Assembly (NCBI RefSeq): GCF_964355755.1
Contig: NC_092674.1
Span: forward strand, 18,538,001 to 18,602,000
DNA length: 64,000 nucleotides
Source: Antedon mediterranea
Taxonomy: Eukaryota > Animalia > Echinodermata
Direction: 5' to 3'
Made by a program: the position numbers and the translations under genes. The notes under the pieces are model-generated. The model had not been told where the DNA came from, searched no databases, and saw only the letters and a list, made by a program, of their open reading frames with translations. Below are positions 34,901 through 40,900 of this stretch, piece after piece (within the stretch, counting starts at the first letter, position 1; every line of letters begins with the position of its first letter).

Positions 34901-37900
34901 ATTATGAGGAAAAAGGAAATAAGATAAAAAATAAACATATTACTGATTAAATTGTATAATATGGACTGTGAATGACAAGAAAAAAAATTACGAAATAAAT
35001 AGAGTTTAAGAAATTTGATGATGTAGAATTAAGAAAAGTATTACTTTTATTGTATTAATCTTGATATTATATTAAGATTAAATAAATGCGAGTCAAAGCA
35101 AATTATAAATATCTATTATAAAATTATACAAGATTATGCTTACTTTGATGTTTACAATTAAATTATGTATGTCAAAAGAAAAAATGTCAAAAGAAAATTA
35201 TGTTATAAAGATTTATATAAGAATACTGTATAACATATTAATGAAAATGTTATTATATTACACATTTACTATAAAAAATATATATCTATATAAAATATAA
35301 GTTTAAAATTATTAATATGAGAAGTTGCTATAAATAAAAAAACAAACAACAACAAAAAATACAATATGTCAAAAGAAAGAATAAGACGTAAAAGATGTTT
35401 AAATTTGTTTTATTAAAAAAAATATAATGCATCTATTTTAAGCAATAAAAGTGGGTGAAATTCCTACAAAAGAAAGAAAATCCTGAATTTTTCAAACAGT
35501 CGTGTTATTTAAAATGTCATGACTTAGTATAGCAGGTTAGATTTTTAAAAGATAAAGAACTCGACCCAGTGTACGAGAGATTGTCTAGTTAGATGATTGT
35601 CTGGCTTGTGCCCACAGGATAATCCAGTAGGTTTTAGTCCAAAAGATATTCTTTATTTAAGTTTTTTGTTTATTTAAAATAAAATGTTTTTAGATTTACC
35701 CATACTACATTAGAATTATAAGAGCAATTGTAAATATTTTCTTTTTCTTTTTACATATTTTTTAACCCTTCAGTCAATTACCATGAAGCTATTGTGTAAA
35801 TAATATTGAAATATATTTTCGAGAAATAGTTAATGAATATGAATGGAAATAACTTTTAAATTTTGTTTGTTAAGTAACATGGGTTTACATGGGTAACATT
35901 GGTCTAGATCAATTGTTTAGGCATATTTGTTATTACGATATCTACCGTCTGGTCTTTTTTTAAGGTTGCATTCACCATAGTGTTTGATCTAGAGATGTTG
36001 TTTAAAATCTGTTGTCTTGGTTTTAATGGCTACATGAAGCGAGTATACCACAAAGTAGAAAGTGTATTGGCCGTTGGTACTACCTTGCACATCTTATCTG
36101 AAAAAAGGCTTTACCACACTCAACTAGCTTATTTTCAGGTAAGAAAAATACCCTGTTTTTTTAGATTTCCAAATTATTTAAGCTGTAGAGCATTTTTTAT
36201 AACAAAAACTCACTAAATTAAAACACTATATTTTGTAATAAATATGGTAGTAATATTTTTTGTTTTCTGGAATAGTGCTCAAGGTGCTATGAAAACCAAC
36301 AAATTATAAAATAAAATTAAGTGATAATGGAATAAAAACAGAGATCTGTATACGATATTCACCATTGCACCATTTACTGAAGTGAACAATATATATGAGT
36401 TTGTTCTTGTTATCATACTGTCTACAGAAATATGTTTGAAATCAAATTGTTCTTTTTTTCTAAAAGAAGAAAAAAGTATGGGTCAGAAAATGTCAGAACA
36501 TCCAAATATACGTTTTCAGAATCTATCATTGATTTAAAATTGTACTTTTTAATTGATTATAGGTATTTAGATTTATACGATTGATTAAGTTGTCACCTAC
36601 TCTTGAAGATTTTGTTCATAAGGTAAATTGATGTTATGTGCTTCAATATGTATTCTAATTAATACTAACTTTTTACCAAGAAAACTAGAATCGTTAGGGA
36701 ATAAGTCATGCTAATATAATAAAAGTATAGTACATGAAAAATGTGTGACAAAACTCTTTTTAGCAAAGAGCAATACATACATTTTCGGAGTGTATAATAT
36801 TCAGTTATATAGATTTATGTATTTGTTCTTTCTTTCTGAACTGAATTACACTTTCAATACAAATGTACTGATTTCGTGGAAAGTGGTTCAGTGAATACAA
36901 CATAATTAACAAAAATCATAATATAAAAATTAAAAATAAAATAAAAACTTTTTACTATGGTAAAGGTAAAAAGGTGATTAAAAAAAAAGGAAAACTTGAT
37001 TTGAAAGATTTGAAAGTAGTAAAGGACATATTATGAAGTTTTTAGATTATTGACAATAATATTTAACAAATGAAAGAATAAGATATATTAAATTTCAGAT
37101 TCTAGGTCCAAGTCGCAAGCTTGGCACATTAGTGGCTTTCACTATGACTTCATTAATAATTGTCTCTGTTGTGAGTCTCCAGTTATTCTGCTTCATTGAT
37201 GGTCTTGATCAGTTTCAAAATTTCTTTAAAGTAAGTTTGGATTCCAAGTTTAACTATTTGTCACTTATTTATTATTTAACTCTTAAATGCTATGTGCAGC
37301 CAAGACATTTATATTGATCATACATTTTAATAATTATCAATCTATAGTTTATCCTATGTTTCATGATATTTTGTGTGTTTGGAAAATAAGCACTTTTTAT
37401 CAGTGAAGGTATAATTCAAATTACCCAATGAAATCAAATTACTGTACTGTATATTATTATAAATAGAATATTGCTATTAATTATATTTGTCATATTGTTC
37501 TTTATTAATTTTAACTTTTACTTTTTCTTTTGTTTTTTAATTTTCCCAGCCTTAAATTAATTTTGTTACACATGCTGTTACTTTTTCTCCTAGGCCCTTA
37601 TGTCTATGTTTCAAATCCTAACACAAGAAGGGTGGGTTGAGGTTAAAAATTCAGCTTGGCATGCCAGTGGCATCAAAGAGCAATTTCCCATAGCCTTATT
37701 CTTTGTAGCATACCATCTTTTTGCTGGTGTGGTAAGTCACTTAATAGTATGCGCTATATTTGCATACTAAAAATATGATGAATAATATAACATGCTACTG
37801 ATGCAAAATTCAAAAATAAAGTGCACATTATAAATATGAATGATTCACAATGGTAATTGATAGAGTGGACATGGCAAGTATCTCCATAGCCTCAAATCAT

Positions 37901-40900
37901 AATTTTCTTATCTTTAGTTCATTCTAGAGTTTTGAAATGTTTTTTTACTGATATTTATTATTAAACAATGTTTTATATTTTACTATAGTAAAGCAACCAC
38001 AAAATGTAAACAATCTAAAATAAATAATACATGGCGATACTTCCTAAATTGTTCTTGCTCTTTTTGGTAACCATCATTTTTTGCACTTTGTTTTGGGGTT
38101 TATCTAAACAATAGCAGTTAAAAAACAGTTACAACTAAAATTATGAAAGCATGAAAAAACAATTGTTTTTTAATGGCTAACAATCAATGGTCCAAAAAAA
38201 AACATCACTCACTTTGCTTAAAATCAACACAGTGTTTATAAAAATTAACAACATTAACTTATTTAATGTTTAACGTTATCAATTAAATAATGAAAAATAT
38301 TTAAAGAATACACTGTATGGTAAGTGAGTACTTGTGAGAGATGTTAGGTGAACACTTAAGTTTTGGATCAGCTTAGAATTAATCATTCAAATCAATAGTT
38401 TACTAAATCAATAGATAAGCCATTTTAAACATCATTCATTGAATCCAAACATGCTATATTTAAATGCTGACAATGATTTGGTGTAACTTTGAAATAAATT
38501 TATTATTGTCTGTTTAGCATTACATAGACCACTTCAGTTGATAACAGTTCAATACCATTTCTATGTTCTGCTTTACTGATTGCAGTAAAGTTTTCTTAAG
38601 AATAATTTGAGAAATAATTAGTTTGTCAATCAAAATATTTGTCTATAATTTGCTTTTTTTTTGATGAGATATAATTACAAAAACTAATACAGTTGGGAGT
38701 GGTGTATTGAGAATAAATTACATTGTATTTCAGCAATGGTGAATGACTGATAAAAACAGAGAAAGTTTGAAGTTGATGAATAATATAATTGTTATAATAT
38801 TCAATGAGTAACCAATATTTTCCACATTTTTATGTATTTGAGCTGTTTACTAAGCGTATGTTTGTTGATTGCTCTCTCCTCCTCCTCCTCCTCCTCCTCA
38901 CCTCAGGTCTAACTCTGCTGATGTTAAATCATACCACTTTTATTTTGTGGGATGCTGAACTGTTTTTCTCTAAAAACATGCAGAAATTAGGATTATTTAT
39001 CGTTTGATTATAATTCATTGTAATAAATGAGGATGATTAAATTATTGGTGGTTTTTTTCCTCACAACAGCTGCTGTCAATATAAAATAAAAGCATTTAAA
39101 AGGATTTCTCACTGAAAGATATTTGGATTAAAGTAACATTAAAATAATTAAAGTAATAACTGAAAACAATATTATATCTAGCTTTATCACATGCTTCAAA
39201 CGTGTTTAACTCAGTTTAACTATTGTGATTTGCTTCTAAGGTGGTTAAAACTTATGTACTATTTAATTTTTTCATTGACTCATTGGTTTATTTCTATTCT
39301 TGCATTCTGCTCTAAATTAACCAATATAACATTTATTAAATTTTTCTCTAATAGGCCTTCATGTCCATGTTTCAAATATTGACCCAAAAGGGATGGGCAG
39401 TGGTTATGTACGAGACAATGTATCAGACATCCACAACCTTCAACCTCCTTATTGTTATCTACTTCATTATATACCATCTTTTCGCTACCATGGTAAATAC
39501 ACGGAACTGCCTCTACAGAGGGCAATGATCTCGTCCAGGGGCTTAAATTCAATAATGTGTCAAATGCAATGGCCCCTGGTAATAACTGATCTGTGTCAAA
39601 CAATGTCATACTATGGCTTGTCTCACCATCAAATGGTTTTGTTAAATAATGTTTACAAATTATTAATAGATCATTGTCCTCTGGTGTGAAACGAATGGAT
39701 TGAAGAATGCTTCAGCAAATTGCTGCATGAAAGTTTATAGCATCATTGCATGATTCATGATTATATACTATTGGTTTTACATTTGCCTACTTTTGCATGG
39801 TATATAAAACACTGACATTCACTAGTATAAGTCTATTCACAGCATTTTACTATTTTACTTGATGTAGAATTATGTTTCAAACAAACTTGGTGTACTGTAG
39901 ATTTATTTCACCACTACACATTATTATTTAAAGACACCTTCCCTACAATTTGTGACGTTTTGTAAAAATAATACATATATATTACTTTAAAAACATTAAA
40001 CCAGGTCATTCCTTGTCTTAAATGTACGTTTTATGGTAAATTATGATAAAAAGTGAGAAACAATGCACTACCTAAGTAGCTCACGGCGACTGACCTCTCA
40101 TGGACGGTCTTTAGGCCTAGCCTAGCTAGGCTTAGTTTTGTAGGCCTAGCTGGTAAACATCGGTAACGTACAAACATCGTACGCTAGCTATATACCTAGC
40201 CTGACGTTGTATAGTTGCTGCATTAATTGTCTTTCTATTTTTGCCAGACTCCGTTGATACAAATTGGGGAAAACCCGGTATTTTCGCTGAAAAGATAGGA
40301 GTCTTCCATTTGTTTTGGCCTCGCGATCGATCGAAAAGTGGGTTAATTACAGAAGAAAAGCAGAAATATCAATCCGCGTGCAATGCATTTTGGGATTTAT
40401 AGCGGGCCGCTATAATTATTAGAATCAACTTATTTTTTACATTTTTAACCGTTTAAAGACGAAAAAAGTTATCGCAATAGGACCATATAGTATTATTTTT
40501 ACATTAAATATAGTTTGTGATCTTAAAATAGATCTAAAAAATGTAGTGAAGGTGTCTTTAACAAACCATTTAAAATAGCAATTGTATATGTAACAGCAAA
40601 TTGGAGCAACCAGCACTTGCCTCAGAACAAATAATAATTCTCCATATTATTATCTCTTCAGGTATATCTTGCCTAGAATGCAAAAATGTTCAATTTAATC
40701 TTGTTGATGTTTGTAACAACTAGAACTAGTGTTGCTCCACCTCAATTAAGTCAGACTTGCATACCATAAAATCCCATTTTTCTAATGATGTCTGCCTATA
40801 AAGCATAAAATTATGATTTGAGTCTTGGTTGTGATTTAATTTGCTCTTGTAGATTTCCTCATTGTTTCATATTATTGTCCTTCAACATTCACTTTCCTCC

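Follow-up and report, generated by a model that had tools for sequence, protein, structure and literature searches.

The 64,000-nt stretch of Antedon mediterranea contig NC_092674.1 analysed here (the window; all coordinates are positions in it, on the plus strand unless stated otherwise) contains 19 coding exons of a gene which, judged from its sequence, is NALCN, including a tandem pair of exons, 15a and 15b, that encode alternative versions of the domain II pore with glutamate (E form) or lysine (K form) in the selectivity filter (exons 14, 15a, 15b and 16 are numbered after Senatore 2013). Both exons are real and expressed, each being spliced alone between exons 14 and 16 in one sequencing run.

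The NALCN gene and the splicing of its exon pair

Regarding the identity of the gene, the RefSeq protein P0016 has four Ion_trans stretches (Pfam), named matches of the E exon were NALCN, and among solved structures the E exon matched human NALCN best (residues 543-586, E 1e-11), with Cav channels at 6e-5 or worse. RefSeq NALCN matches the E exon at 100% identity in Antedon mediterranea and at 87% in Anneissia japonica. The 19 exons, with GT-AG boundaries in all introns, splice to an exact prefix of the RefSeq proteins P0013, P0015 and P0016, amounting to 884 residues in the both-exon model and 838 in each single-exon model, and no later NALCN exon was found within the window after 48304 (Table 1).

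An earlier note on this DNA had described two intact paralogous exons of 138 nt, and the sequence bears this out: both are in phase 0, preceded by AG, followed by GT and free of in-frame stops, the filter codons (GAA at 37627, AAG at 39388) and the domain I glutamate (25253) are as claimed, and the spliced translation supports the flanking splice sites at 37230 and 45242. The glutamates that it predicted for domains III and IV, encoded by exons beyond the window, are present in 6 of 6 RefSeq proteins (LSLEGW and TGEDW, respectively). Since domains I, III and IV all carry glutamate, the single-exon forms have the filters EEEE or EKEE; these motifs hold as proposed, while the terms 'Ca-channel-like' and 'Na-channel-like' attached to them are a naming by motif.

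The peptides of exons 15a and 15b are identical at 20 of 46 residues, comprising 12 of the first 14, 2 of the 19 in the P2 helix and loop, and 6 of the last 13. Only 77 of 138 nucleotides and 19 of 46 third codon positions are the same, and 8 of the 20 identical residues are encoded by different codons, so that the duplication must be old. The two exons match one another within the window at E 6.7e-10; no third copy was detected in the window, the next match (E 0.004 at 62664) having a stop and sitting in a repeat array.

Ten sequencing runs turned up for the locus, none of them recorded as RNA, and in two of these, X5 and X9, the contigs over the upstream NALCN exons are spliced (contigs placed on 35900-39900). 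Run X5 carries the same organism code as the best DNA runs, and X9 has a different code, that of a related organism with 11 mismatches per 677 intron letters. In X5, contigs join 37230 to 37594 (depth 15.2) and 37230 to 39355 (depth 16), both with GT..AG, although contig depth does not equal inclusion rate and rare splice forms drop out of contigs, and both 37731 and 39492 are followed by the initial 28 letters of exon 16 (45242). Thus, all four junctions by which the earlier note had proposed to check the switch (37230-37594, 37230-39355, 37731-45242 and 39492-45242) are found in this run, and neither a 37731-39355 joint nor a skip is among the four X5 joints listed. For 31-letter words, the contig ends are those expected of a bubble (fork 27+3+1 after the shared GCC, merge 28+2+1 before the shared TG), the length of the upstream contig fits (26+174+60+134+3=397), and the bin depths are consistent with a single unbroken contig across each exon. 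A 15a-15b junction or a skip would break contigs at the exon ends, and X5 has instead a clean two-arm bubble with short sides of 27-28 letters. Wider placement of contigs from X5, X6, X7 and X9 was dominated by repeats, with no exon joint among the 15 of 372 joints listed, and runs X6 and X7 held no splicing information.

The RefSeq proteins of Antedon (XP_071949636-42), identical to the window over its 884 residues, include one isoform with the E exon only (isoform X4), one with the K exon only (isoform X3) and four with both (isoforms X1, X2, X5 and X6), a form unseen in the contigs of run X5; the suspicion that automated annotation may keep just one exon therefore did not hold. E-only and K-only proteins are present in RefSeq for Antedon, Anneissia, two Asterias species, Patiria, Acanthaster, Apostichopus and Lineus, and are the sole forms in Patiria, Acanthaster, A. 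rubens and Apostichopus, and the RefSeq records listed for Lytechinus, Diadema and Ptychodera have the K exon only. Among 58 Logan-derived proteins, the E exon alone is found in 48, the K exon alone in 4, and 6 lack the anchors, with no crinoid fragment recognised among the 58; all 4 of the echinoderm-like full-length proteins from Logan assemblies carry the K exon alone.

That one of the exons is a silent remnant is, given these data, almost certainly wrong. The faster evolution of 15a (mean identity 0.52 among a exons, 0.70 among b exons), the K-only records of Lytechinus, Diadema and Ptychodera and the lack of a 15b contig in X9 would suit a remnant, but the splicing of both exons in X5 refutes it at the RNA level, both are kept in the other crinoid (87% and 89% identity), and neither has splice-site scores outside the range of the gene's remaining exons.

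Table 1. Features of the NALCN gene and its alternative pore exons in the window.
Feature	Position	Strand	Basis or remark
NALCN coding region, 19 coding exons, ATG at 19651	19651..48304	+	residues 1-884 of both-exon RefSeq model; domains III and IV beyond window
Domain I filter codon GAA (E274, ASLEGW)	25253..25255	+	translation
Exon 14, constitutive: domain II S5 and turret; donor AAA/GTAAGT	37099..37230	+	spliced translation, contigs
Exon 15a, E form, 46 residues from the P1 helix through filter TQEGW and the P2 helix into the first part of S6	37594..37731	+	joint 37230-37594 in X5 and X9; 3' end to exon 16 in X5
15a filter codon GAA (E; aligns to human E554)	37627..37629	+	alignment
15a filter+4 codon GAG (E at the position of human D558; outer acid retained)	37639..37641	+	alignment
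Intron between 15a and 15b, 1623 nt, GT-AG	37732..39354	+	sequence
AG-free stretch, 112 nt, ahead of 15b acceptor	39241..39352	+	sequence
Exon 15b, K form, 46 residues from the P1 helix through filter TQKGW and the P2 helix into the first part of S6	39355..39492	+	joint 37230-39355 and 3' end to exon 16 in X5
15b filter codon AAG (K)	39388..39390	+	translation
15b filter+4 codon GTG (V where human has acid D558)	39400..39402	+	alignment
Exon 16, constitutive: rest of domain II S6	45242..45387	+	first 28 letters behind 37731 and 39492 in X5

Probable leakage and the control of exon choice

Mutual exclusivity, as claimed in the earlier note, agrees with the splicing of each exon alone in X5, while other records suggest leakage, and several observations weigh against a strict choice. 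Both-exon forms make up 4 of 6 RefSeq proteins in Antedon, 5 of 9 in Anneissia, 3 of 6 in Lineus and 5 of the 10 listed for A. amurensis (15 of the 17 members of the Asterias protein cluster being among those listed), as well as 1 of 5 Strongylocentrotus records, and one RefSeq protein each of Anneissia and A. amurensis has neither exon. The exclusive two-arm bubble comes from the contigs of a single run, with 27-28 letters on its short side. Run X9, at a depth of ~6, shows no 15b contig, and its contig from exon 14 to 15a continues unspliced for 677 letters into the intron and ends at 38408, which may reflect incomplete splicing, a retained intron or a transcript end within the intron; by eye, the sequence beside 38408 has no clear poly(A) signal. 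The upstream X9 contig stops exactly at 37230, which indicates a second successor not starting with G, and a 426-nt contig over later exons has exactly 30 letters left ahead of exon 16; these letters, not themselves displayed and at a depth of ~6, are likely to derive from a 14-16 skip of both exons. Exon 15a in X9 has 0 mismatches where ~2 would be expected from the 11 in 677 intron letters, a difference too weak to count.

Both-exon models also exist for Octopus, Elysia and Tegillarca. In the protein set, the both-exon NALCN models P0003, P0004, P0034, P0043, P0046, P0005, P0177 and P0194 belong to echinoderms, a nemertean and molluscs, and protein-cluster representatives are frequently of the both-exon form.

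These records would also fit two independent cassettes, an unlikely reading in which transcripts with both exons or with none are made regularly and under regulation, and in which the no-exon form, in frame but without a pore, shuts off the leak or binds up UNC79, UNC80 and FAM155, with which NALCN works in a complex. The both-exon models of the four tallied species, one sea urchin record and the three molluscs Octopus, Elysia and Tegillarca, the neither-exon models of two species, the skip suggested by X9 and the fact that all four splice forms are in frame and without stops would be accounted for in this way. However, neither a both-exon nor a skip arm occurs in the X5 contigs, 0 of 4 informative Logan-derived proteins have both exons or neither, and five tallied species groups have single-exon forms only (Patiria, Acanthaster, A. 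rubens, Apostichopus and, with K only, Lytechinus). A doubled P-loop with half an S6 would probably not fit a four-domain pore, and automatic gene models are known to chain mutually exclusive exons, which likewise speaks against cassettes. Very doubtful, too, is an echinoderm switch with a third regulated setting, in which a K form without both domain II Ca2+-binding acids would provide a leak nearly free of Ca2+ block in sea-water body fluids of 10 mM calcium, the E form would be Ca2+-sensitive, and in some tissues the no-exon, in-frame, pore-less NALCN would silence the leak or sequester partner subunits.

Regarding the means by which an exclusive choice of 15a or 15b could be enforced, both exons are 138 nt long in phase 0, and the both-exon and neither-exon forms have no stop or frameshift through the window, so that nonsense-mediated decay cannot enforce it. 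The donors concerned (GTAAGT, GTAAGT and GTAAAT), set against the U12 donor consensus as yardstick, and the GT-AG boundaries of all introns exclude U2/U12 incompatibility as the cause. Steric clash cannot enforce the choice either: it requires that the donor of the first exon lie very close to the branch point of the second, and here the intron measures 1623 nt, with an AG-free stretch extending just 112 nt upstream of the acceptor. This stretch ahead of 15b is the longest of the 17 acceptors scored (10-50 nt in the other 16), and its length points to a possible distant branch point for 15b. As for competing RNA pairings between a docking site and selectors, none of 8 candidates in the window beat dinucleotide shuffles (the best being equalled in 5 of 40), and the 356 pairs of inverted repeats in 37231-45241 were, among the 25 listed, mostly repeat elements or 70-80% AT-rich matches. 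The pairings that touch the acceptor regions (37557-37585/38220-38248 and 39267-39296/38130-38159) had duplex energies not beyond those of shuffles. By elimination, we infer that splicing factors, and no built-in lock, decide between 15a and 15b; control of this kind would allow for some leakage, and the choice is probably a little leaky.

Pore chemistry and history of the two exons

It is very probable that exon 14 is spliced to either 15a or 15b and on to exon 16, giving two equally long channels, EEEE and EKEE, which likely differ in the binding, passage or block of Ca2+. Under this reading, transcripts with both exons or with none would be rare, would probably encode no functional pore and would enter the RefSeq models. 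To judge from human mutants, the K form would conduct a leak of monovalent cations that external Ca2+ blocks less, and the E form would bind Ca2+ more tightly, be blocked more strongly and possibly pass some Ca2+.

In alignment with human NALCN, the crinoid K exon has K, V and Y at the positions of E554, D558 and D561, respectively; the E exon of the crinoid retains acids at the equivalents of E554 and D558, and its filter is free of lysine. The divalent block of human NALCN is cut drastically by E554A, moderately by D558A and hardly by D561A or K1115A (Chua 2020, PMC7182417), and E280, E554 and D558 form a cation site in simulation (Xie 2020, PMC7672056); weaker Ca2+ block is therefore predicted for the K exon, which has no acid equivalent to D558. 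A review describes the outer ring as much less important than the filter+1 site (Guan 2023, PMC10120453). Other points tell against so simple a prediction: the glutamate of domain IV is not oriented towards the pore in the solved human NALCN (Kang 2020, PMC7712781), so that EEEE need not act like a Cav filter; the domain III glutamate could compensate for the lost domain II acids; and a 2025 preprint describes the selectivity of invertebrate EEEE NALCN as still uncharacterised.

A main effect on gating, open probability or assembly, exerted through the 25 other differing residues in P2, the outer loop and S6 rather than through selectivity or Ca2+ block, would leave the splice exclusive and has a lesser but appreciable chance of being correct. 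It draws on the low similarity of the P2-loop part (2 of 19, with 20 of 46 residues common overall), on the inclusion of the first part of S6 in the exon, on the near wild-type divalent sensitivity of human K1115A (Chua 2020, PMC7182417) and on snail isoform currents that were indistinguishable from background according to Senatore 2013 (PMC3557258). Against it, the filter residue sorts perfectly in the aligned rows, themselves labelled a or b partly by that residue (E in 10 of 10 a exons, K in 17 of 17 b exons), whereas the loop is free to change, and an independent duplication of exon 31 in arthropods gives the same E/K swap with little else altered (PMC3557258). Among the literature matches listed on the invertebrate NALCN filter since 2021, no title or abstract opening mentions a recording of EEEE or EKEE isoforms; a search for EKEE filter mutants of NALCN in oocytes with FAM155A gave no match, and one for NALCN exon 15 skipping found no relevant paper, its sole match being unrelated (placenta).

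Regarding the history of the pair, exons were aligned and a tree built from 38 rows and 45 columns with the filter column left out, rows being labelled a or b by filter residue and, where one record had both, also by position; 17 of 35 inner branches were open. The crinoid b exon groups with the b exons of other echinoderms and hemichordates (10 exons; 82/87, unstarred) and the crinoid a exon with 4 other echinoderm a exons, from sea star and sea cucumber (88/73, unstarred); topology tests gave p-AU 0.059 for a crinoid-only duplication and p-AU 0.19 for all b exons in one clade, so that neither is formally rejected. As far as these short alignments go, the tree is compatible with, but no proof of, one old duplication as in Senatore 2013. 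In chordates and arthropods, the single E exon is nearer to K exons (mean identity 0.63) than to alternative E exons (0.52); either 15b is the conservative copy, or the single exons derive from 15b with K changed back to E, and the 38-row tree does not separate a vertebrate origin from 15a from one from 15b.

The acid at filter+4 is kept in all 21 E exons compared. It is absent from 12 of 12 echinoderm and hemichordate K exons, including that of Antedon, unlike the mollusc, nemertean and brachiopod K exons of the same switch, 5 of 5 of which keep it. Uniqueness of this loss to echinoderms and hemichordates was rejected, as K exons of parasitic flatworms also have no acid there. The crinoid E exon has K at filter+6 (37645-37647, WVEVK), a residue shared by just two of the 38 rows, those of the crinoids; the motif mirrors WVEVR of human domain III.

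Neighbouring features and relation to known NALCN switches

The window also contains, on the minus strand and head to head with NALCN, ABC transporter exons at 566-988 and 6862-7278 (Pfam ABC_membrane, E 9.6e-24 for 569-988; no Pfam match for the frame 6865-7278) of a gene presumed from resemblance to be ABCC/MRP-like. Between this gene and NALCN lie LINE-type reverse transcriptase fragments on the plus strand at 10254-10856 and 12259-12600 (RVT_1, E 5.7e-13; zf-RVT below the cut-off) and a single tRNA-family match on the minus strand at 14133-14198 (39.1 bits), which may be a tRNA-derived repeat. High-copy repeats occupy parts of the NALCN introns (30000-32700, 39960-40600, 42600-45270 and 48600-49900), with very high summed contig depth in all of X5, X6, X7 and X9; the frames 31392-31913 and 32602-32991 had no Pfam match and are presumably LINE remnants. 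The long intron after 48304 contains an array of diverged 1.3-1.8 kb repeats (~53100-63300, 83-96% alike), two copies of which share an identical 114-residue frame (53680-54024 and 55004-55348) without a Pfam match.

A tandem pair of NALCN exons covering the domain II pore, 15a with E and 15b with K, has been reported from flatworms, molluscs, annelids, echinoderms and hemichordates, with a tissue-dependent 15a/15b ratio in snail (Senatore 2013, PMC3557258), and the switch was restated by Stephens 2015 (PMC4436565). The earlier note had assigned the Antedon exons to this EEEE/EKEE exon 15 switch of invertebrates, rightly so: the upstream E exon and downstream K exon correspond to 15a and 15b of Senatore 2013 in gene, span (P1, filter, P2 and start of S6), order and the glutamates of domains I, III and IV. 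Crinoids are absent from the main text of that study, the echinoderms of which are two sea urchins (Appendix S1), and no paper on crinoid NALCN was among the literature matches listed. Exons 31a and 31b of myriapods and chelicerates (EEEE/EEKE, PMC3557258) are likewise a tandem E/K filter swap with E first; however, they lie in domain III, stem from a separate duplication and are near-identical outside the filter, whereas domain III of Antedon has a fixed E (6 of 6 RefSeq proteins). Human NALCN, in contrast, has the filter EEKE, one exon 15 with E554 and a lysine fixed in domain III; it conducts monovalent cations only, with divalent block via E280, E554 and D1390 and less via D558 (PMC7182417, PMC7672056, PMC7712781).

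The crinoid case is thus a further instance of a splice switch known since 2013, which it extends to crinoids, and its isoforms are already predicted in RefSeq; what it adds is junction evidence for both forms, a caution regarding both-exon models, the missing filter+4 acid and a hint of a no-exon form. The longest RefSeq isoforms, here and in three other tallied species, join both pore exons and are likely not working channels, and would therefore mislead cloning or structure prediction, while both-exon cluster representatives would distort surveys of filter motifs. The function of EEEE and EKEE channels can equally be addressed with snail or sea star clones, the crinoid case not being key to it, and for that comparison the loss of the filter+4 acid provides a specific prediction, namely that Ca2+ block would be weaker in the EKEE form.

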